Shown piece after piece: positions 714-46,154 of a stretch of 47,390 nucleotides of DNA. This DNA comes from a virus: UHGV virus genome UHGV-1361924; one strand, given 5' to 3'. The position numbers were made by a program, and so were the translations under genes. Position 1 is the stretch's first letter; each line of letters starts with the position of its first letter. Under the pieces are notes generated by a model. It saw only the letters and a program-made list of their open reading frames with translations. It searched no databases and was not told the origin of the DNA.

Positions 714-900
714 GCTGATTAAGCAGTACGGCACCATGAAGAATGTGCATGAGGCAACTGGCTTTGCGGAGTGTTCAATCTACCGGTATCGCTTTGATAC
801 AGGCATGAAAGACCACATTATTATAAATGGCAGGCTGTTTACGGCCCGTAAAACATCGAAGGTGGCAAATGTTGTGGTCAGACATTCATGCGGTGTGTGA
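685..900 (+). CDS. hypothetical protein (possible HTH); start uncertain (alt ATG 736)
   Basis: ORF track; protein-like composition. Confidence 0.3.
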   Translation: MQLHITSVPELIKQYGTMKNVHEATGFAECSIYRYRFDTGMKDHIIINGRLFTARKTSKVANVVVRHSCGV

Positions 901-1026
901 AGAGGCTGATTTCCTGTATGAGGAAACCGGCAGGCATCACTCCGTCATTCAGGTTGGCAGCATGATGATGGTTATTGAGCACCATCTGTCATTGCAGTAC
1001 ATGTACTCAACGGTGAGGTATCAGTA
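868..1026 (+). CDS. hypothetical small protein (52 aa)
   Basis: RBS AAGGTGG 7 nt upstream of ATG 868; TAATG coupling to next ORF. Confidence 0.4.
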
Positions 1027-1191
1027 ATGCCGCAGAAAACGAAACAGGAGATATGGCAGGCGGCCAAAGATGAGAAAGTCGACCACTTCATTGCCGCCAT
1101 TGCGAAGGCGTTTCCTGATGCGATTGAAGTGGTGCATGTGAAATCAGACAATCAGAATGTTTGGTGTTATGTGAATAGTGATGTAAAATAA
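1027..1191 (+). CDS. hypothetical small protein (54 aa)
   Basis: TAATG overlap with upstream ORF; followed by strong terminator. Confidence 0.4.
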   Translation: MPQKTKQEIWQAAKDEKVDHFIAAIAKAFPDAIEVVHVKSDNQNVWCYVNSDVK

Positions 1192-1218
1192 ACCCATCAC
1201 ATCACCCACCACCCTTTT

Positions 1219-1247
1219 AACCCGCTTCGGCGGGTTCTTTTTTATCT
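1219..1247 (+). terminator. rho-independent terminator
   Basis: hairpin aacccgc-ttcg-gcgggtt followed by cttttttat. Confidence 0.7.
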
Positions 1248-1301
1248 ACGCCATTGTGGTAAGATATGTCCTATGTGAGTTACTCAAAGGACACATAGAA
1301 T

Positions 1302-1736
1302 ATGGCGAACCCAAACCCAAAACATAAGTTTTCTTCTGATAATCAGCCGCCTCCCAGAGGAAAAAGCTACAGGACTGTGCTTTTAGAAGCATTACGTGCT
1401 GCAAACAATCCAATGAATGAGATTGAGTTCGTCACCTATTACATTAATCAGGCAATGAAAGACGGCGATGCTGGCATGCTGCGGGAAATATTCCTGCGCC
1501 TTAATCCAATTCCGAAACCAGTCGCTCCTCCGATTGAGTTCGACTTCCCGGCAGATGGCACTCCTGTCGAGAAGATGGACGCAATTATTAAAGGCGTTTC
1601 CACTGGAGCCGTGCCTGCTGATATCGGCAAGATGATGGCTGACATCATTAAGTCTGGCCTGGATATTCAGGAAGTCACCGAGCTTGCTGCACGACTTGAG
1701 AGGCTTGAGAAGTTGCTGGAGGAAAAGAATGCTTAA
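1302..1736 (+). CDS. putative terminase small subunit
   Basis: 144-aa ORF immediately upstream of large terminase; C-terminal coiled coil; position-based. Confidence 0.5.
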   Translation: MANPNPKHKFSSDNQPPPRGKSYRTVLLEALRAANNPMNEIEFVTYYINQAMKDGDAGMLREIFLRLNPIPKPVAPPIEFDFPADGTPVEKMDAIIKGVSTGAVPADIGKMMADIIKSGLDIQEVTELAARLERLEKLLEEKNA

Positions 1737-1884
1737 ATTCACTCTATCAATAATGGCATGCGCAATGCTGATGTTTATATTTTGCGGAATATCCAGCAGC
1801 AGCGCCTTTGTTATATGGGGAAATATGTTTACATTTCTCTCATTTATAATCACACTCCTGGGCACCAGAAAGCATGGCTCGTAA
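1729..1884 (+). CDS. small hydrophobic ORF between terminase genes (51 aa)
   Basis: two predicted TM segments; overlaps both neighbours; uncertain. Confidence 0.2.
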   Translation: MLKFTLSIMACAMLMFIFCGISSSSAFVIWGNMFTFLSFIITLLGTRKHGS

Positions 1885-3304
1885 ACGCCTCTCTGCACTG
1901 GCAATCGAAAAGCTGGAGGCGCAGGTGGATGATGCACTGACCGATGTTGCTGAGTCGGCCATCTTCGGCATCTGCGATATGCAGAAGAATGTCATTAAGC
2001 GCCTCAGAATGACCGCTAATGGTGTGGAGGATGTTACCAATGCAACAACGCAGGCTGACCACTTAATCCCCGCAAAACTTGAAAGGCTGCTTTATCCGAA
2101 GAGAAACAAGATAGCTTTCGGTGGCAGGGGATCGTCGAAGACCAGAACGGTAACGACCATACTCACCGAGAGAGCCAGGTTCCGCCCTGAGCGCATAGCC
2201 TGCTTCCGTGAGATTCAGCAGTCTATTGAGGACAGCTCATATCAGGAACTAAAGGACGAGATTGACCGCAAGGGAGAGACAAAAGAGTTTCGCGTAATCA
2301 ATAACGAGATAACCCACAAAGGCACTAAGGCAAAATTCCGATTTAAGGGGTTGTATCGCAACCAGACGACTGTTAAGGGCTTCGCAGGCATTACCGTGGC
2401 CTGGGTGGAGGAGGCTGAAAACGTCAGCCAGACAAGCTGGGAGATACTCACACCAACCGTCCGCGCGGAAGGGTCAGAGATATGGGTGACATTCAACCCG
2501 AATAAGGAGCATGACCCAACGTGGAAAATCTGGGTGGAGCCTTTTTATAATAAATTGCGCGAGAATGGCGGGATTTACGAGGACGAAGAAAACCTGATCA
2601 TCGAGTGTAATTACTCAGACAATCCGTGGTTCTGGGATACACCACTGCCCAGCCAAATGCAGCGCATGAAGGAGACCGACTTCGACCGATACCAATGGGT
2701 ATGGGGAGGACGTTTTAATAAGCGAAATGATGAACAGGTCTTTGGAGGTAAGTGGCGCGTTGCTGATTTTGAGGTTAAACCTGAATGGCATGGGCCTTAC
2801 TTTGGCATTGACTTTGGTTTCTCGCAAGATGCCACGGCGATGGTAGAGGTCTATCTTGAGATTCTTCCAGGTGACAGGAGAAACGTTTACATTAACCGAG
2901 AGTACGGAAAGGTAGGCCTTGAGATTACCGACACCCCAACGGAAATGGAGCAATCATTCCCGCTCGCCAGGAAGGCAAGATGGTATGGCGACTGCTCGAG
3001 ACCAGAAACCATTAGCCATATCAAGCGATCTGGTTTCGATATTCATCCATGCAACAAATGGCCCGGTAGCGTTGAGGATGGCGTGACATGGCTTAGAGGT
3101 TGTGATTCGATTGTCATCCACGACAGGTGCAAGCAGACTCAGGAAGAGTTTTCAATGTACAGCTATAAAGTAGACAAGCTGACTGGTAATGTTCTGACAG
3201 ATATAGTTGACGCATGGAACCATTTCATAGATTCGATCAGGTATGCATGCAACGACCACATCGTACAGCGTGGCTCTGGATGGATTAGAAGGAGCAGGAG
3301 ATAA
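1874..3304 (+). CDS. terminase large subunit
   Basis: 476 aa; Walker A-like GGRGSSKT near N-terminus; C-terminal nuclease-like region; canonical position before portal. Confidence 0.9.
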   Translation: MARKRLSALAIEKLEAQVDDALTDVAESAIFGICDMQKNVIKRLRMTANGVEDVTNATTQADHLIPAKLERLLYPKRNKIAFGGRGSSKTRTVTTILTERARFRPERIACFREIQQSIEDSSYQELKDEIDRKGETKEFRVINNEITHKGTKAKFRFKGLYRNQTTVKGFAGITVAWVEEAENVSQTSWEILTPTVRAEGSEIWVTFNPNKEHDPTWKIWVEPFYNKLRENGGIYEDEENLIIECNYSDNPWFWDTPLPSQMQRMKETDFDRYQWVWGGRFNKRNDEQVFGGKWRVADFEVKPEWHGPYFGIDFGFSQDATAMVEVYLEILPGDRRNVYINREYGKVGLEITDTPTEMEQSFPLARKARWYGDCSRPETISHIKRSGFDIHPCNKWPGSVEDGVTWLRGCDSIVIHDRCKQTQEEFSMYSYKVDKLTGNVLTDIVDAWNHFIDSIRYACNDHIVQRGSGWIRRSRR

Positions 3305-39815: not shown

Positions 39816-40295
39816 TTATTTGATGATCAGCTTTGGTTTTCCATCGGTGATGGCACAACCTTTAATTTCAGTTCCGGCTTTCAGTGCCGCTTTAATGGCT
39901 GCATTATCTGCCGAAAATTTTACAACGCGATACTGCTCTGGCAACTGCTCAACCGGGACAAACACATCCAAAACAGGAGATGGTTTGCCAAGCGTTATGC
40001 TGAACAGCTTGCCTTTGATATTCGTTTTTCCAGATGCAAGCATGTTCTGACGAAGATAATCTTTCAGGTTATCTATCTTCGCAGTCAGCACCCGCTTGCG
40101 TTCTGACAGGCGATCAATCTCAGCCTTCATGCCAGCTTCATCCGCCTCAAGCTCGCTGATATAAGCGGCAACCATCTCGGCCTTTCCTTCAAACTCCTCC
40201 TCAATCAGGTTAATGGTGTCTTCAATCTGCTCGCGTGGAATATCTTCCATCGCAAGCAGTTCGTTAAGCTGTTTCGTTATTTCGTAAAGACGCAT
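39816..40295 (-). CDS. Siphovirus Gp157 family protein
   Basis: 159 aa coiled-coil protein typical partner of Sak4. Confidence 0.6.
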   Translation of the reverse strand: MRLYEITKQLNELLAMEDIPREQIEDTINLIEEEFEGKAEMVAAYISELEADEAGMKAEIDRLSERKRVLTAKIDNLKDYLRQNMLASGKTNIKGKLFSITLGKPSPVLDVFVPVEQLPEQYRVVKFSADNAAIKAALKAGTEIKGCAITDGKPKLIIK

Positions 40296-41106
40296 AATAC
40301 TTAATCTCTGTCAGAAGTGGATTTTCGCCTTTATCAAACTGAATCTCAGGTTCAAGGTTGAAGCGATTTTTCGCATTAACGTAACCAACCCGGCCATCAC
40401 CAGAGGTGACAAGTACACGCTGCCCAGTCTGCACAACCTTACCGAACTTAGTTACCTGCCCTTTTTTATCTGTCTCAGTACCCTTCACAAACTCCTCATT
40501 GCGGATATAGATAACAGCATCGCTAAGCGCAACGTAACCATCAATACTGGCTTCGTGCATGTTGAGAGTGTAAACGGTGTACTCGTCAGAATCAGGTCGG
40601 TTCTTCATCTTACGTATGCCAGCATGCGCAAGATAAATGATGCTCATCCCTTTGTTAGAGCGAAGATACTTGCATGCGTTAATAATTTCAGCATGCATCT
40701 CAGCCACAACCAGATAGCCCTTGTTGTAACCACCGGCTGCTGCGCCAACGTTATCTACTCCATAGTTTTCGCAAACCTCATGCTCAAACATGGCGTGGAG
40801 GCTGGTGATGGAGTCGATAACCAGCGTTTTATAGTCATGCTCTTCTGTAATAAGAGCGCGCAACTGTGACAATAAGTCTTCTTTTGTACTCGTCTTGCGC
40901 TTTGCATCAGCTCGCTTCAGAACAGGGAATGAATCAGGCTTGTTTTCTTCGTCCCAGTCGTCGAATACGCCAGTAATCTCTTCAGCCTGAATGAAAACAG
41001 GCTTAGGGAAGAGCGCCGCCAGAGTCGTCTTGCCAACACCAGGGGTACCAACAAGGGTAATGATAGGTGCAACTGGTTTTGGTTTTTGAATCATTGATAA
41101 GCTCAT
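40264..41106 (-). CDS. Sak4-like RecA-fold recombination ATPase
   Basis: Walker A GTPGVGKTT; start at MSLSMIQ with GAGAGGA RBS. Confidence 0.7.
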   Translation of the reverse strand: MSLSMIQKPKPVAPIITLVGTPGVGKTTLAALFPKPVFIQAEEITGVFDDWDEENKPDSFPVLKRADAKRKTSTKEDLLSQLRALITEEHDYKTLVIDSITSLHAMFEHEVCENYGVDNVGAAAGGYNKGYLVVAEMHAEIINACKYLRSNKGMSIIYLAHAGIRKMKNRPDSDEYTVYTLNMHEASIDGYVALSDAVIYIRNEEFVKGTETDKKGQVTKFGKVVQTGQRVLVTSGDGRVGYVNAKNRFNLEPEIQFDKGENPLLTEIKYYASLRNNETA

Positions 41107-41238
41107 AGTGTCCTCTCGAATCACTCAGCGTTGTTGCTGGTGTGAGTAAAAGATACGACAGGACATTCGTCAGGTCAATAGCTTTACATAAAAATATTTT
41201 GCGTTTATCATTCTTCTATAAATTAGCAGGAGGAAAGA

Positions 41239-41480
41239 TGAAAACCATCGCTGAACAAATCAAAGAAATGGAAAAGAAAGCTCTCGATGCTCTTATTGAG
41301 CATATGGGAGGACAAGCATCGCTGGCGCGCTTCCTTGGCGTTTCTCGTCAATCAGTAAACGAATGGGTTTCCCGTGGGCGCATCAGCGCAACGGCTGCCA
41401 TAGAGGTAGATAAGCTAACCAACGGACTTTTTAAAAAGGAAGATTTGCGCCCAGCAGTTACTCAATGGAGAGCGAAATAA
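41239..41480 (+). CDS. Cro/YdaS-like HTH transcriptional regulator
   Basis: ASLARFLGVSRQSVNEWVSRGRIS; strong RBS GCAGGAGG; ORF-track 5' extension rejected. Confidence 0.55.
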
Positions 41481-43798
41481 TGACAGGATACAAGGATTAT
41501 CACGCCGCCGGATTCCCTGTTATAGGAATCCATCCAATGGATCATGACAGGAAATGTACCTGCGAGCGTCCTGAATGCGACGCAGCAGGCAAGCATCCCA
41601 TAATGTCAAACTGGCAATGTGGAATCATATGGGAAGATGACCAACTTGAAAACATGCGCGAGTTTGGCCAGCTAAATAGCTTCGGCGTGCTGGTAGATGG
41701 TTATCTTGTCGTGGATGTTGACCCGAGAAATGGTGGCAATGAAGGGTATGAGGCGCTTTGCGAGGCACTTGATATGGAGCTTGCAGATGAATCAGGATTT
41801 GTAGTGAACACTGGTGGTGGCGGAAAGCATATTTATTATAAATTGCCAGATGGAGTGAAGCTCAATTCTCACGACAAGCGATTCAAAGGAATTGACTTTA
41901 AGTCTTCAGGCTTCGTGATCGGATGTGGCTCATTCCATAAATCAGGCAACTTTTATGAAGCTGAGCATGGCTCTCCGTCATCCATAACAGAGCCACCGTC
42001 GTCACTTGTTGAGCTATTGCAACGAGCAGAGCGCGAGGAATTTTCACTCGGTGCCGAATCGTTTTCTATGCAGGAACTTCAGGACATGCTGAACCACATT
42101 AATTGTGGTGAAGATTATGAAGACTGGATTCGCGTTGGCATGGCAATTCATGAGGCAACAGATGGTAACGGATTTGATTTGTGGGACTCATGGTCATCAC
42201 GCTTCTCAAAGTATGACCCATCTGATATGGATTACCACTGGCACTCATATGGTAAGGGAAATGGGGACCGCGTCACTGCCGCTACGCTTGTTCATCTGGC
42301 TGAAGAGGGTGGATGGGTTCGTGCAGTTTCATTTCAGGCGTCGCCAGAAGAAATTGCATTGCTTGAGAAATTTGAGAAAAAAATGGCGATGGGTGTTGGT
42401 GAATGCCCGGTTGATTACAAATCTGTTGATGTGCGGTTTCCGCCAGGGTTCGTCGGCAAGTTGACGGAATGGATTAACAGAAACTGCGCTGAGAAAAGAG
42501 AATACCTCGCAGCTCTGGCAGCCATCCATGCGGCATCAATAATCTGCGGCGCCTCTTCAGATATTTACCTTACCAATCGTAAGGCTGTGCCAAATCTTTT
42601 TTCTATTGGCATCGCCGGGTCTGGCTCAGGAAAGGGTGACGTGCTTGCGGCTTTGCAAAAAATTATCGACTGCTCAGGACTCAGCAAGACAGTAGCCGGT
42701 AAAATCCGTTCTGAAAGAGCCATATATGAGGGGCTGGCAGCTAATCAGATGTTTAACCTCATTATGGATGAGATTGGCATCAAACTCGGCAGCGTGGTTG
42801 GGCAAAAGGTCAGTGAGTACAACATGGCCACGGCTGGCGCACTAATGGAGTCTTACACCGCAGAAATACTGTACTGCGACCAGCGCATCACTGATGAATA
42901 CGTCAAGCAGTTTGAAAAAAGGCTTGGCACTCTCATGATGATGATCGAAGAAAACGAGTTGCAGGCAGATCCTGTCGACATTAAGCATCAGTTTGAAGAT
43001 GTGATTAGTCGCATAGATGGTGCGATAAGAAATCCTTTCTTTTCCATGTTTGGCGTTTCGACTGATGACCAGTTCAAAAAACTCATTACCGAAGAGAACA
43101 TCAAATCAGGTCTCATGGGGCGCGCCATGATTATGCAGGAGCTTCAGGAAATCGCAGACGAAAACGAAGATGTGGAATACTGCGATCTGCCAATGTCTAT
43201 GCAAATGACCATAAAAACAATAATAAATGGCACTACTGCTGGTTACAAAAACTGGACTGAATCAATCATAAGCAACAAAGAAAGGCGAGCAATAAAGGCA
43301 ACACCAGAGGTGTCAGCAATGGCCAAAGAGTTTTTTTCATGGCTCAAGATGATTGCCCGTCAGCACGTAGAAAATGGCACAGGCTATCAACCGTTGATTA
43401 ACCGATGTGCTGTAAAGGTGGCAAAGATAGCCGGAATTCTTGCCTGCGATACTGGCGTTATCACAATGGAGCATCTACGGTACGCCGTTGCGCTCACCAT
43501 CAAATCAACAAGCGATTTAATGATGCGGGCTGATAGTTTGTCAGGGGCTAACTCCAAGAGCAACGACAGGCGCGTTGAGGGGCTTGAATCGCTTGTCCGT
43601 GAGTACGTCAAGCGTGGAATGGCCCGCAAAGCAATCATTATTGGCGTGGCTAAGGACGGAAACTATAAACGAGCTGACTCTGAGCGCATGCTGGACAAGC
43701 TCATTGAAGACGGTGAGGTTATTGAGGATAAAGAGGCCAGGCGCACAAGCAACCGGGCCATCATCTATAAATTAGTTAATGATGAGGTAAGCATATGA
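41480..43798 (+). CDS. primase-helicase (PrimPol-like N-terminus + D5/P4-type SF3 helicase-like C-terminus)
   Basis: VVDVDPRNGG catalytic motif, Zn motif CTCERPECDAAGKH, P-loop-like GIAGSGSGKG; TAATG coupling, GGAG RBS. Confidence 0.75.
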   Translation: MTGYKDYHAAGFPVIGIHPMDHDRKCTCERPECDAAGKHPIMSNWQCGIIWEDDQLENMREFGQLNSFGVLVDGYLVVDVDPRNGGNEGYEALCEALDMELADESGFVVNTGGGGKHIYYKLPDGVKLNSHDKRFKGIDFKSSGFVIGCGSFHKSGNFYEAEHGSPSSITEPPSSLVELLQRAEREEFSLGAESFSMQELQDMLNHINCGEDYEDWIRVGMAIHEATDGNGFDLWDSWSSRFSKYDPSDMDYHWHSYGKGNGDRVTAATLVHLAEEGGWVRAVSFQASPEEIALLEKFEKKMAMGVGECPVDYKSVDVRFPPGFVGKLTEWINRNCAEKREYLAALAAIHAASIICGASSDIYLTNRKAVPNLFSIGIAGSGSGKGDVLAALQKIIDCSGLSKTVAGKIRSERAIYEGLAANQMFNLIMDEIGIKLGSVVGQKVSEYNMATAGALMESYTAEILYCDQRITDEYVKQFEKRLGTLMMMIEENELQADPVDIKHQFEDVISRIDGAIRNPFFSMFGVSTDDQFKKLITEENIKSGLMGRAMIMQELQEIADENEDVEYCDLPMSMQMTIKTIINGTTAGYKNWTESIISNKERRAIKATPEVSAMAKEFFSWLKMIARQHVENGTGYQPLINRCAVKVAKIAGILACDTGVITMEHLRYAVALTIKSTSDLMMRADSLSGANSKSNDRRVEGLESLVREYVKRGMARKAIIIGVAKDGNYKRADSERMLDKLIEDGEVIEDKEARRTSNRAIIYKLVNDEVSI

Positions 43799-44172
43799 TC
43801 CGCGTAATTCAGCAAAGCGATATTTTTGCATACAGCCAGTATGAAGCTGAGTGCGAGCCAGAAGCAGCGCTAAACATGATGACTGGAAGAAACCTGATGG
43901 AAGTCTACTATCACAGCGTGCCGGTGTTTCGTTGCAATATGGGGCACAGCATAGAGGATGATGTATTTTTCTGCCGCATAAACTACAAGGGTAACACGGC
44001 ATTCATTTCACAGCCTTATCGTGATGTGGCGAAAAAATGCGGCAAGTGGACTCCAGATGAGCATTTCGCTGGAAATGCTGTGGCAAACTTCTGTGATGTG
44101 TTTGGCGTCAACAGGGAAGAACTGAAGAGACACCTTGACGCGAGGAGAGAAAGGGATTGCGCATCTAATTAA
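43795..44172 (+). CDS. hypothetical protein
   Basis: 125 aa, ATGA coupling. Confidence 0.5.
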   Translation: MIRVIQQSDIFAYSQYEAECEPEAALNMMTGRNLMEVYYHSVPVFRCNMGHSIEDDVFFCRINYKGNTAFISQPYRDVAKKCGKWTPDEHFAGNAVANFCDVFGVNREELKRHLDARRERDCASN

Positions 44173-44175
44173 AGC

Positions 44176-44205
44176 AAAGCCACCTAGCCGGTGGCTTTTT
44201 GTTTG
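44176..44205 (+). terminator. rho-independent terminator
   Basis: agccacc-tagcc-ggtggct + tttttgtttg. Confidence 0.65.
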
Positions 44206-44280
44206 ATTGAAGTTGACCAGACACGTTAAAAGTAGTAACTTTATATAAGTTGATGATTTTATTGAGTTCTAATGTTTTCT

Positions 44281-44593
44281 GGACTTTAGAGCGACATTCA
44301 AAACGTCTTTAGGAAGTTGTTGATTTTTAAACGAAAAACACCAAAAAACAGCTCTAAAGTCTACTTTTTGGTACCCCCCCCCCTCATCGAAAAATAAAAT
44401 TCATAACAAAAAAATACCCCCCCCCCCACAAAAAATAGACTTTAGAAGCAAAATCGCCCTGCAGGCCGCGTCATATATGGATTCTCTAAAGTCGTGACCT
44501 AAAAAACGTTCGGGACTATAGAGGCTCCTATAAGACCTTTTTTCTCCTTCAATACTTACCAATTATTTATATATAAACAATAGACTTTAAAAT
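44281..44593. repeat. AT-rich non-coding region with 5-7 GACTTTAGAG iterons (both orientations) flanking two poly-C tracts (C10 at 44374..44383, C11 at 44417..44427)
   Basis: seen directly; no ORF >40 codons. Confidence 0.7.
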
Positions 44594-44664
44594 CCCTTAG
44601 AGAGATGGTAACTCACGTTACAAAACTATTAGCTTGCTATTGTTTATTTATTTTCACCATCATA

Positions 44665-44693
44665 TTGACGTAGATTGAGCGCCATCGTATAGT
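44665..44693 (+). promoter_or_regulatory. sigma70-like promoter TTGACG-17-TATAGT (motif TTGACGTAGATTGA)
   Basis: seen directly; 30 nt upstream of first early gene. Confidence 0.6.
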
Positions 44694-44724
44694 TACCACA
44701 CCAACAACAAAGAGGTGATGAAGA

Positions 44725-44940
44725 ATGAAAAAAGGCGATGTGGTGGAGTGCGTTGACGCAAAGGGAAGTGAATATCTTACTAATGGAAAATCGTATGAAG
44801 TTGTAGCGGGAAAAGGCGACAATGGAAGATATGGATACATCAGCAGCGATATGGGATTTGAAATAGTAGACGACAATGGGTATTCAGCATTTTGCTTATA
44901 TCCTGAATGTGAACACGCTGAATGGAGAATCAAAGAATGA
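44725..44940 (+). CDS. hypothetical protein
   Basis: 71 aa, RBS AGAGGTGA. Confidence 0.5.
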   Translation: MKKGDVVECVDAKGSEYLTNGKSYEVVAGKGDNGRYGYISSDMGFEIVDDNGYSAFCLYPECEHAEWRIKE

Positions 44941-45122
44941 CCAAAGCAATCTACAAGCGCACTCAACTGGAACCAGAAATGGGCACAGTGAAAGCGCAAA
45001 ACTTTATGATGGCGCAGGCAATGCATGCATACAGCAACGGCAAGCGAGTCTGTCGCGTTTTTAGTGGCGAAGGTAAGCACAGAACACTTGAGCAGGTTAT
45101 CGTGTCGTCTGGCGCAAACTAA
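44937..45122 (+). CDS. hypothetical protein
   Basis: ATGA coupling. Confidence 0.4.
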   Translation: MTKAIYKRTQLEPEMGTVKAQNFMMAQAMHAYSNGKRVCRVFSGEGKHRTLEQVIVSSGAN

Positions 45123-45137
45123 ACCGGTTTAGCAACG

Positions 45138-45416
45138 ATGAATAAGCTATTTGCAGTGGTGTTGCTCGTCATTTCCAACGCAACAAGTGCCGAAACCATA
45201 TGGGTAACGAAATACGCGCTTACCCGTGGCATTCAGAAGTACGAAAGCGCACAGTTGTTTGCTGATGGTCAGGTTGCCGTAGTTGGCGATGTTTACTTTA
45301 AGCGTGGTGAGTACTGGCTTGATGAACAACAGGCAAAAGACCATGCAGAAACGTTGCGTCAGCGCAGAGTATCAGCACTGATGCGTGAACTTGAAAGATT
45401 GCAGGCTGTTAAGTGA
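45138..45416 (+). CDS. small secreted protein with signal peptide
   Basis: MNKLFAVVLLVISNATSA-ETIW. Confidence 0.5.
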   Translation: MNKLFAVVLLVISNATSAETIWVTKYALTRGIQKYESAQLFADGQVAVVGDVYFKRGEYWLDEQQAKDHAETLRQRRVSALMRELERLQAVK

Positions 45417-45423
45417 GGGTGTG

Positions 45424-45882
45424 ATGATTACTGTCAATGAAGTGCAGCAAATGATTGAGAAACTTGAAGCCGCTGGCGAGATTTCCATGAAGGAAGAAAA
45501 GTATCTGGCGCTGGCGAAAGCGTTTAAGCAGCTGGCTGCGGAGAATGTGGGGCTTAAGGCTGGCGTTGCAGAAGAAATTGAAGTTATCAATCGCGGCGGT
45601 CAGATGTACTGCGTGAAGGACGGCATGTCCATAAATCCGATATATGCGCGCGGATGGAATGACCACCGGGCTAATGTGACGGCAGTACAAACCCCCGCCA
45701 CCGATCTCATCGTAGCCGGGATTAAGGCTGATGGGGTGGAGGAAATGGCGTCAACTTACCGCGGTTTTGCCAATAAGGATGGCTGCTCTGTAAACATGAA
45801 ATGCAGCTACAACCTCACCGCAGAACTAGCCGAAAGCTACGCGGCCTATATTCGCCACCAGATGCGCGAGGGGGCCAAATGA
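45424..45882 (+). CDS. hypothetical protein
   Basis: start at ATG 45424. Confidence 0.45.
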   Translation: MITVNEVQQMIEKLEAAGEISMKEEKYLALAKAFKQLAAENVGLKAGVAEEIEVINRGGQMYCVKDGMSINPIYARGWNDHRANVTAVQTPATDLIVAGIKADGVEEMASTYRGFANKDGCSVNMKCSYNLTAELAESYAAYIRHQMREGAK

Positions 45883-46154
45883 GCAAGTCATTCATCGTAA
45901 TTATCCGGCGCGCCTGGTGTAACGAAGGCGGGCACGGTATCGAATATTCATCTGACCTTATTCACTACGAGACCCGCAATGGAGCCATATCACACGGTTT
46001 TCGGACTGTAGATAGCGACGATTTCAACATCGGAGTTATCGAGGGCGGCAATCTGGTTTCGTTTGACTGGATGGATAAGCCGGTTGGTGAAAGCGAAGAC
46101 ACGCTGGCACAGATTGCCGAGCTAATCGGTCTGGAGGCACAGCATGACAACTGA
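45879..46154 (+). CDS. hypothetical protein
   Basis: ATGA coupling. Confidence 0.45.
   Translation: MSKSFIVIIRRAWCNEGGHGIEYSSDLIHYETRNGAISHGFRTVDSDDFNIGVIEGGNLVSFDWMDKPVGESEDTLAQIAELIGLEAQHDN

Follow-up and report, generated by a model that had tools for sequence, protein, structure and literature searches.

We analysed a 47,390-bp stretch of DNA, the UHGV virus genome UHGV-1361924 (hereafter the window), which represents the near-complete genome of a virulent Klebsiella siphophage, and focused on the noncoding region at positions 44206-44664, which probably serves as the origin of vegetative replication. Klebsiella phage VLCpiS13c matches positions 44150-44730 at 94.7% over the full length of the region, and phage vB_KpnP_XY3 matches the same positions at 94.6%; both genomes are 47-48 kb long. 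For related phages including DP01, KlebP_265 and pIS4-A, the name 'Roufvirinae/Skateroufviridae' has been proposed (PMC11769527). For comparison, we used 16 loci encoding relatives of the primase-helicase described below, 26 loci from IMG/VR bearing an exact 33-nt promoter block, and 8 loci with more distant homologues; individual loci are denoted by numbers with the prefix L.

The locus is organized as a minus-strand recombination block followed by a plus-strand three-gene operon, a terminator, the noncoding region, a promoter and a series of small genes. The recombination block includes a gene for a Sak4-like AAA_24 protein (40264-41124, minus strand). The replication operon begins with the gene for a small Cro/YdaS-type helix-turn-helix (HTH) protein (41142..41480, plus strand; Pfam YdaS_toxin 3.7e-17, P22_Cro 5e-9; PHROG 35, transcriptional repressor), and a gene of this type also lies beside the primase gene in L045, L049, L050 and L052. 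The second gene (41465..43798, plus strand) encodes a 777-aa primase-helicase, the proposed initiator, which comprises an AEP Prim-Pol domain, PriCT-2, an MCM-like AAA+ domain (DUF3987) and a predicted C-terminal winged helix. The third gene (43795..44172, plus strand) is translationally coupled to the second and encodes a 125-aa protein that belongs to phrog_33005 (unknown function) and gave no Pfam match. An open reading frame (ORF) of 98-140 aa with no recorded Pfam family follows the primase gene in the PrimPol-type relatives examined, sequence similarity to the 125-aa protein (95-98%) being demonstrated for close relatives only. An earlier sequence-only reading of the window had placed the noncoding region directly after the primase-helicase gene; in fact, the 125-aa ORF intervenes.

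On the left, the region is bounded by an intrinsic terminator that ends the replication operon (44176..44205, plus strand), consisting of a hairpin at 44176-44198 with a 9-bp stem (5 G-C pairs) and a subsequent T run. On the right, it is bounded by the early promoter TTGACG-17-TATAGT (44665..44693, plus strand), which agrees with the consensus at 10 of 12 positions. Both flanking signals are present as had been proposed, and the view that no credible ORF lies between them was supported as well: among ORFs of at least 30 aa, just two touch 44206-44664, both on the minus strand. One of them encodes 53 aa from a TTG start (44401-44562) and crosses the C11 tract described below; we judged it spurious, since L003/L004 do not conserve the stretch that it covers. 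The other is the terminal part of an ORF of 147 aa with a GTG start, the rest of which overlaps the plus-strand early genes.

The noncoding region bears a cluster of short repeats. When the whole window was searched for GACTTTAGAG with at most one mismatch, six matches were found in the 47,390 bp, five of them within 44282-44523, at 44282 (+), 44352 (-), 44438 (+), 44484 (-) and 44514 (+). Shuffled sequence gave a mean of 1.67 such matches per whole window, and the binomial probability of finding five of the six within a given 532 bp is 1e-9. At up to two mismatches, 7 of 35 matches lie inside 44199-44730 against 0.32 expected (P 5e-8), and a second cluster was not found, no other 400-bp stretch of the window having more than two matches at this threshold. 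Weaker variants are represented by GACTTTAAAA at 44583 and GTCTTTAGGA at 44305. The five matches with at most one mismatch and the weaker copies at 44293, 44305 and 44583 all lie within 310 bp, and the cluster begins 110 bp past the end of the replication operon. The iterons listed in the sequence-only reading are all there, but the positions of two needed correction (CTCTAAAGTCG is at 44484, not 44476, and cgtctttagga runs from 44304, not 44306), and the list had lacked the direct-repeat triplet 44282/44293/44305.

This triplet, GACTTTAGAGC / GACATTCAAAAC / GTCTTTAGGAAG (44282..44316, plus strand), comprises three direct iterons starting at 44282, 44293 and 44305, that is, with a phasing of 11-12 bp. 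It is followed by an inverted iteron (44352..44361, minus strand) situated in the left arm (44353-44370) of an 18-nt inverted repeat, whose right arm, together with the iteron GACTTTAGAA, occupies 44429..44447 (plus strand). The inverted repeat (44353-70 / 44429-46) includes two iterons and encloses two cytosine tracts with a spacer between them (C10-33 bp-C11); as single-stranded DNA, its arms form a stem of 17-20 bp (z = -4.9). Further to the right there are an exact inverted iteron (44484..44493, minus strand) and an iteron variant, GACTATAGAG (44514..44523, plus strand), the latter being conserved in L003, L004 and L005. The 44352(-) and 44438(+) repeats flank the C10-AT33-C11 element, and the 44514(+) and 44583(+) repeats flank a second AT-rich block, with repeats of both orientations present on each side of AT-rich DNA.

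The second AT-rich block (TATATATAAACAATAG..., 44529..44651, containing GACTTTAAAA at 44583) is conserved and represents the best thermodynamic candidate for an unwinding element. A nearest-neighbour stability scan located the least stable duplex of the whole window here, both as a 60-bp segment (44529-44588) and as a 100-bp segment (44552-44651). The block comprises a 15-nt inverted repeat (44569-83 / 44637-51) and a small hairpin, GTAAC-N4-GTTAC, at 44608-44621, and it is nearly invariant among the PrimPol-type relatives. The sequence-only reading had assigned unwinding to the 33-bp spacer between the cytosine tracts, but the scan showed that the easiest-melting DNA is at 44530-44650 instead. 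Neither DnaA boxes (at most two mismatches) nor GATC sites were found in the region, which fits an origin that does not depend on the host initiator. Matches to the IHF consensus in the region have one mismatch each and are uninformative.

The two cytosine tracts, C10 (44374..44383, plus strand) and C11 (44417..44427, plus strand), are the sole G/C runs of at least 6 nt in the whole window. They bracket a spacer of 33 bp (44384..44416, plus strand) with 85% A+T and an A-rich top strand; the positions of the tracts are exactly those given before. The suspicion that the tracts are length-variable and prone to assembly errors was also borne out: the C10 tract is 9-10 nt long in relatives including L001 and L002 and the C11 tract 9-11 nt, the paired lengths being 9/9, 9/11, 10/9 and 10/11 in four independent genomes, and the L010/L022 contig is broken inside the first tract. 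Around them, at 44320-44440, the DNA shows a strand asymmetry, with the top strand composed almost only of A and C (A-tracts and the two C runs) and the bottom strand rich in T and G. In principle, the bottom strand of this segment could form a G-quadruplex from G11 + G10.

Behind the terminator lies a possible weak rightward promoter directed into the iterons, TTGACC-17-TAACTT (44214..44242, plus strand), which was recognized by eye, falls below the scan threshold and is only presumed to function; its -10 matches at 3/6 positions. A TTGAC(C/G/T)-16/17-TAnnnT element directly follows the terminator in L010, L045, L049 and L050, and L018 has the same TTGAC-type element upstream of its iterons with no visible terminator; the elements of L018 and L049 are stronger than the TTGACC-17-TAACTT of the window. 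The recurrence of such an element after the terminator in several lineages would be in line with a noncoding or primer RNA synthesized from the putative 44214 promoter, with the repeats forming part of its structure. The inverted repeats would indeed fold, and T4, T7 and the lactococcal phage c2 provide precedents for origins that are transcribed. Nevertheless, we consider such an RNA very unlikely. A search of 43000-46000 on both strands against Rfam 15 revealed no family match at E <= 1, the left half of the block has been exchanged as a whole among close relatives and no compensatory pairing is apparent, and the repeats occur in both orientations, as expected of duplex binding sites; the poor -10 of the candidate promoter in the window adds to these objections.

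The part of the 777-aa protein proposed to read the iterons is its C-terminal domain (43553..43774, plus strand; aa ~697-770, with the wing RTSNRAIIYKL), predicted to be a winged helix. An AlphaFold2 (AF2) model of residues 301-777 based on 17 homologues had a mean predicted local distance difference test score (pLDDT) of 68.5, with the last 75 residues at 72-87 in a helix-helix-helix-hairpin arrangement. AF2 applied to the C-terminal 117 aa with a 4-sequence alignment yielded no usable model (pLDDT 44). The profile of the C-terminal domain gave sub-threshold matches only when compared with PDB and Pfam, these being consistently of the winged HTH type, and just three proteins were retrieved when the 95-aa C terminus was used in a word-indexed search for homologues. 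The modelling thus points to an initiator whose MCM-like AAA+ core is followed by a winged helix at the C terminus. Its likeness to Rep of the SaPIs (pathogenicity islands of Staphylococcus aureus) and to Cch, as judged from the model, is at the level of the fold only.

L003, L018 and L010 each have, next to the repeats, a gene for a stand-alone protein with the SNRAIIYK motif (190 aa in L003, 215 aa in L018). These genes (L010 6331-7175; L003 6751-7323, minus strand; L018 ~890-1540, minus strand) are situated between the 125-aa ORF and the repeats, and tblastn showed the L018 protein to be 39% identical to aa 702-770 of the primase. These proteins may act as competitors or helpers at the same repeats.

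Comparison with the relatives revealed that the block is conserved in position while its sequence is replaced. A noncoding block of 375-600 bp separates the replication genes from the early promoter in 25 of the 26 IMG/VR promoter contigs and in further loci; in the 26th contig, L033, only 21 bases lie upstream of the promoter. The position of the block is constant across three gene arrangements. In the first, that of the window, the Prim-Pol operon is followed downstream by the block. In the second, found in most relatives, a Zn-ribbon primase gene (plus strand) and the genes for a DUF3987 helicase of 496, 517 or 551 aa (minus strand) and a 71-95 aa protein (minus strand) end at the block. 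In the third, where the primase is 76% identical to that of the window, the block lies upstream of the operon, beside an inverted copy of the early promoter.

Around its AT-rich DNA, each block bears a family of short repeats peculiar to it, with copies in both orientations. That of the window type is GACTTTAGAG; the group with the 517-aa helicase has GGGGCA, GGGGAA and GGGTTA, the 551-aa group GGGAACTCG, the 496-aa group TGGATAAG and GGTTGAA, and the group with the 76% identical primase TCGGGAAGC, TAAATGCCA and CTATTTGCCA. The positions of the repeats relative to the promoter are retained across the families, and triplets phased by 10-12 bp, of other sequence, recur in L013, L014 and the 517-aa helicase group. 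The copies within one genome change together. Sites bound by a protein that itself varies, and to which they are matched, behave in this way.

Several other features of the repeat blocks were noted in individual relatives. In those with a split primase, that is, a separate Zn-ribbon primase and DUF3987 helicase, a small variable protein (71-95 aa, in some cases with an AP2 domain) adjoins the repeats. In the distant relative L051 (5800-6100), 12 copies of CTGTAAA in both orientations occupy the block centre and are flanked by the TTAGAAGCG family and a C7 tract; these two repeat families suggest two different readers. In L023 and L038, which belong to the 496-aa helicase group, the repeats TTGGATAAG, three in a row, resemble the DnaA boxes TGTGGATAA.

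The early promoter itself is strongly conserved. Its 33-nt block is exact in the 26 IMG/VR contigs, and the ~85 bp around it (44646-44730) were found in 45 GenBank phage records, in 39 of them at >=95% identity; among the matches are records bearing the names Aeromonas phage pIS4-A and Vibrio phage pYD38-A. The gene that comes first after the promoter is a variable cassette, its proteins differing in the window, L003, L004, L007 and L018. Since the repeat block adjoins this promoter in all arrangements, one may ask whether the block serves mainly for transcriptional control, the repeats being operators for winged-helix/HTH regulators, such as the C-terminal domain of the helicase, the stand-alone winged-helix proteins of the relatives or the Cro-like protein. 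Such operators would govern how active the early promoter (44665) and the promoter behind the terminator are. Two repeats of L049 fall within the spacer of a promoter, TTGACC-17-TATTAT; in those relatives whose helicase operon is on the minus strand, a distance of 60-110 bp separates the left repeat cluster from the first gene, and the promoter of this gene has to be located there; and the accessory proteins with the SNRAIIYK motif in L003, L010 and L018 are encoded right beside the repeats. We still regard a mainly transcriptional role as rather unlikely, because 8-12 helically phased sites distributed over 300 bp around 30-130 bp of AT-rich DNA exceed the needs of known operators, because no gene in the window is transcribed leftward out of the region, and because the repeat family follows the replication module and not the early genes, which all repeat families have in common. 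An operator role can, moreover, coexist with an origin, as in iteron plasmids whose Rep represses its own promoter.

The block also attracted attention as a place where sequences end. The ends of at least 4 of the 26 IMG/VR promoter contigs and of L011 fall inside it (binomial P about 3e-4), L030 being among the contigs that end there, and GenBank record PV296009 starts at window position 44245 and ZCKP8 ~230 bp upstream of the promoter. Taken with the repeats beside A-tracts, which resemble some pac regions, this might point to a pac site, a cos site or a fixed terminus whose repeats are bound by the small terminase; a pac site or terminus had been raised as an alternative in the sequence-only reading. 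The data on relatives speak against it so strongly that we give it hardly any credence. Yersinia phage P400 (vB_YenS_P400) has no cohesive ends and is circularly permuted according to Bal31 mapping (PMC9412545), and this phage has the same architecture of repeats and G tracts; for the related phage KlebP_265, PhageTerm detected no termini (PMC11769527). The contigs with ends in the block are self-closing, with overlaps of 89 nt for L006/L019 and 9 nt for L008/L043, and L010/L022 break in the first poly-C tract. We therefore rejected the clustered contig ends as physical termini in view of the self-overlaps and the experimental data on relatives; most likely, they are breaks of the assembly graph at a mosaic junction or a homopolymer. 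The terminase genes do not fit either. The terL gene (1874-3304) is ~4.6 kb beyond the noncoding region round the circle, with more than 10 genes between, and terminase types vary independently of the repeats: one repeat family occurs with candidate TerS types 51% or 88% identical and with TerL 59-91% identical, and different repeat families have one terminase type in common.

While terL is uninterrupted in the window, the TerL match is in two pieces in L019 (5609-8125), L030 (1474-3990), L032 (6235-8736) and L036 (5034-7550). The pieces cover aa 1-97 and 87-476 and lie ~1.06 kb apart on the same strand, which suggests an intron, an intein or a homing-endonuclease insertion in these four relatives.

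The homopolymer tracts recur in other lineages. In 7 genomes belonging to 4 lineages, an AT-rich spacer is enclosed by G/C tracts of 6-11 bp; the spacer is 31-33 bp long in six of these genomes and 39 bp in P400 (31-39 bp overall). P400 has G7-39 bp-G6, with flanking repeats that share only the TTAGAG core with those of the window; L046 has C8-33 bp-G8 and L047 C10-32 bp-G8, both flanked by GGGAAGC repeats unlike those of the window. In the P400, L046 and L047 loci, the tract pair comprises the only runs of at least 6 nt, or two of three, and single G/C tracts were found in L049, L051 and L011. The tracts are absent from L003-L008, whose helicase is 97-99% identical, from L013-15 and from all split-primase relatives, thus indicating that they are not essential to this type of origin. 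No fixed amino-acid difference in the primase-helicase distinguishes genomes with C tracts from those without, and hence the tracts are not tied to a helicase variant. Their orientation depends on the lineage: the window has C..C, P400 has G..G, and L046 and L047 have C..G. In the C..G arrangement, each C tract is on the template for outward leading-strand synthesis.

That the paired homopolymers form a working part of the origin core and are not a quirk appears doubtful to us. If they do, it is conceivable, as a matter of speculation, that they act as clamps fixing the size of the initial bubble or as poly-dC start sites for the AEP Prim-Pol, and these two functions could coexist; formation of a G-quadruplex on the G-rich strand is an equally speculative possibility. 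The orientation of the tracts could then decide between a one- and a two-directional start of synthesis, and slippage in tract length would tune origin firing.

The repeat family also appears to change with the initiator. Between otherwise similar phages (L020-L042), the replication module is swapped wholesale, being represented either by a Prim-Pol/DUF3987 fusion or by a Zn-ribbon primase with a DUF3987 helicase. The DUF3987 helicases of 496, 517 and 551 aa are mutually unrelated in sequence, and these helicases and the PrimPol fusion, all without detectable similarity to one another, pair with unrelated repeat families. Within the PrimPol fusions, L011-13 and L015-17 (6/7 of L011-L017) are 99-100% identical over aa 300-680, but over aa 680-777 the group with GGGAAGC repeats (wing RTSHNVIIYKL) is just 86% identical to that with AWWTGCCA repeats (wing RTSNAVVIYKL). 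The wing SHNVIIYKL is likewise found with GGGAAGC repeats in L046, L047 and L048. The wing SNRA(I/V)IY(K/R)L pairs with the TTAGA(G/A) core in the window, L049, P400 and L051, and the same core accompanies the variant wing NNRAIIYKL in L050; the L049 protein is 71% identical to that of the window, and its block has 8 copies of ACTTTAG. Altogether, three wing types pair with three repeat cores across ~20 genomes, with few independent events behind the pairing and with L013/L015 and window/L003-8 as exceptions. These comparisons suggest, but do not prove, that the repeats follow the replication module and, among the PrimPol fusions, the C-terminal domain.

Taken together, the data lead us to propose, with a probability of roughly 0.7, that 44206-44664 is the origin of vegetative replication, served by the 777-aa primase-helicase encoded upstream. 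The sequence-only reading had offered the same interpretation from the iterons and the AT-rich DNA. Apart from the role of the spacer, it is supported by the comparative data, as the block keeps its position and architecture among relatives, the repeats appear to change with the C-terminal domain of the helicase, the protein is predicted to combine an MCM-like core with a winged helix, and the region holds the least stable duplex of the window. Most probably, the predicted winged helix would read the GACTTTAGAG-type repeats in both orientations on either side of AT-rich DNA, and the bound protomers would form rings or hexamers and melt the AT-rich DNA, at 44530-44650, the likelier site in terms of stability, or else in the 33-bp spacer flanked by the C tracts. 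The helicase would load itself with no separate loader, and the N-terminal AEP Prim-Pol domain would lay the first primers.

A number of observations weigh against this interpretation. A phmmer search with the 777-aa protein against all PDB sequences gave no relevant match at E <= 1 to SaPI Rep or any solved structure, Foldseek gave no match at E <= 1e-3, and the confidence of the model is moderate. The GC skew lends no independent support; it is uninformative on the origin, because the cumulative curve reaches its minimum near 41 kb, where the genes change orientation. The papers searched on the relatives BUCT541, KlebP_265 and P400 mention no origin. As the block always lies beside the early promoter, the roles of operator and origin cannot be told apart. 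The covariation, too, has its weak points: few independent events underlie it, roughly two changes within the PrimPol fusions in addition to the swaps of modules; the C-terminal domains of L013 and L015 are identical, yet their repeats differ at 2 bases; the N-terminal 300 aa differ between the repeat groups as well; the helicases of the window and L003-L008 have no fixed difference, yet their repeats are partly different (GACTTTAGAG vs GACTTTCGAAA / CCGAAAG); and the 517-aa group combines a 100% identical helicase with a varying mix of repeats. In the last group, the readers may be the small neighbouring proteins (71-95 aa, some with AP2). A one-to-one pairing of these small proteins with the repeat types of this group was tried and gave no clean mapping.

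An iteron origin with a self-loading helicase is of a known kind, not described for these phages in the papers searched on BUCT541, KlebP_265 and P400. The closest parallel is provided by the SaPIs, where Rep, a helicase that loads itself, uses a C-terminal winged helix to bind 6-12 short iterons directly downstream of rep, the ori has an AT-rich centre with iterons on each side in opposing directions, and primase and Rep are fused in SaPI5 (PMC9371898). In the SaPI pri-rep-ori systems (Rep1, PriRep5) and in SCCmec Cch, just as predicted here for the window, the initiator is the replicative helicase, its MCM-like AAA+ core being joined to a C-terminal winged helix. Like the window with its proposed origin, SaPIs can have the primase fused, have the origin just downstream of the gene, and have 6-12 short repeats in opposed orientations on either side of an AT-rich centre; as in the group of the window, repeat specificity differs between otherwise related elements (PMC9371898). 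The two systems differ in that no sequence homology is detectable and the window primase is an AEP Prim-Pol with PriCT-2. The repeats of the window are 10-12 bp long against 5-6 in SaPIs, and a 125-aa gene and a terminator separate them from the helicase gene. The window has two AT-rich elements and SaPIs one, and its central G/C homopolymers are not described for SaPIs in PMC9371898. Finally, the window is a virulent phage of Gram-negative bacteria, whereas a SaPI is a satellite island.

The Sulfolobus plasmid pRN1 also bears some resemblance to the window. Its orf56/orf904 region encodes a small repressor and a Prim-Pol helicase and has an essential cis sequence within ~170 bp downstream (PMC4234260). 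As in the window, a gene for a small DNA-binding repressor precedes that for a protein with Prim-Pol, helicase and winged helix, and the Pfam Prim-Pol family is common to both. Unlike the window, pRN1 is an archaeal plasmid, its downstream element is described as a stem-loop and not as an iteron array around AT-rich DNA, its helicase is usually classed as SF3, and its repressor is of another type than the Cro/YdaS-like protein of the window.

The alpha protein of satellite phage P4 unites primase, helicase and a C-terminal winged-helix origin-binding domain in one polypeptide of 777 aa, the same length as that of the window protein, and it reads octamer repeats in both orientations. The P4 primase, however, is of the Zn-ribbon/TOPRIM type, whereas the window protein has AEP Prim-Pol and PriCT_2, a Zn-ribbon primase occurring in relatives as a separate protein of 297-308 aa; and P4 depends on crr, another repeat cluster at a distance of 4.5 kb, with no distant counterpart in the window. 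A lambda-type origin (O iterons plus an AT-rich region) resembles the proposed one of the window in having phased repeats by AT-rich DNA, with a specificity swapped between related phages. In contrast to the window, the lambda ori lies inside the initiator gene and the host DnaB is recruited via P, while the window phage brings its own helicase and its region is devoid of DnaA boxes and GATC. For the Sfi21-type origin, a literature search gave nothing usable.

The homopolymer-bracketed spacer is the one unusual feature of the region; it represents a compact, testable oddity, whose practical relevance is that it breaks assemblies. The phage group under study includes many candidates for Klebsiella therapy. 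If the proposed origin is real, it would provide a defined cis element with a matched initiator for phage engineering, and the region cloned on a plasmid could serve as an origin decoy against these phages. The variants found among the relatives would make up a naturally occurring set of initiator/repeat pairs, suited to the study of DNA recognition by a winged helix that is part of an MCM-like helicase. For the phages themselves, an origin at this site would explain the mosaic exchange of replication modules at the locus.

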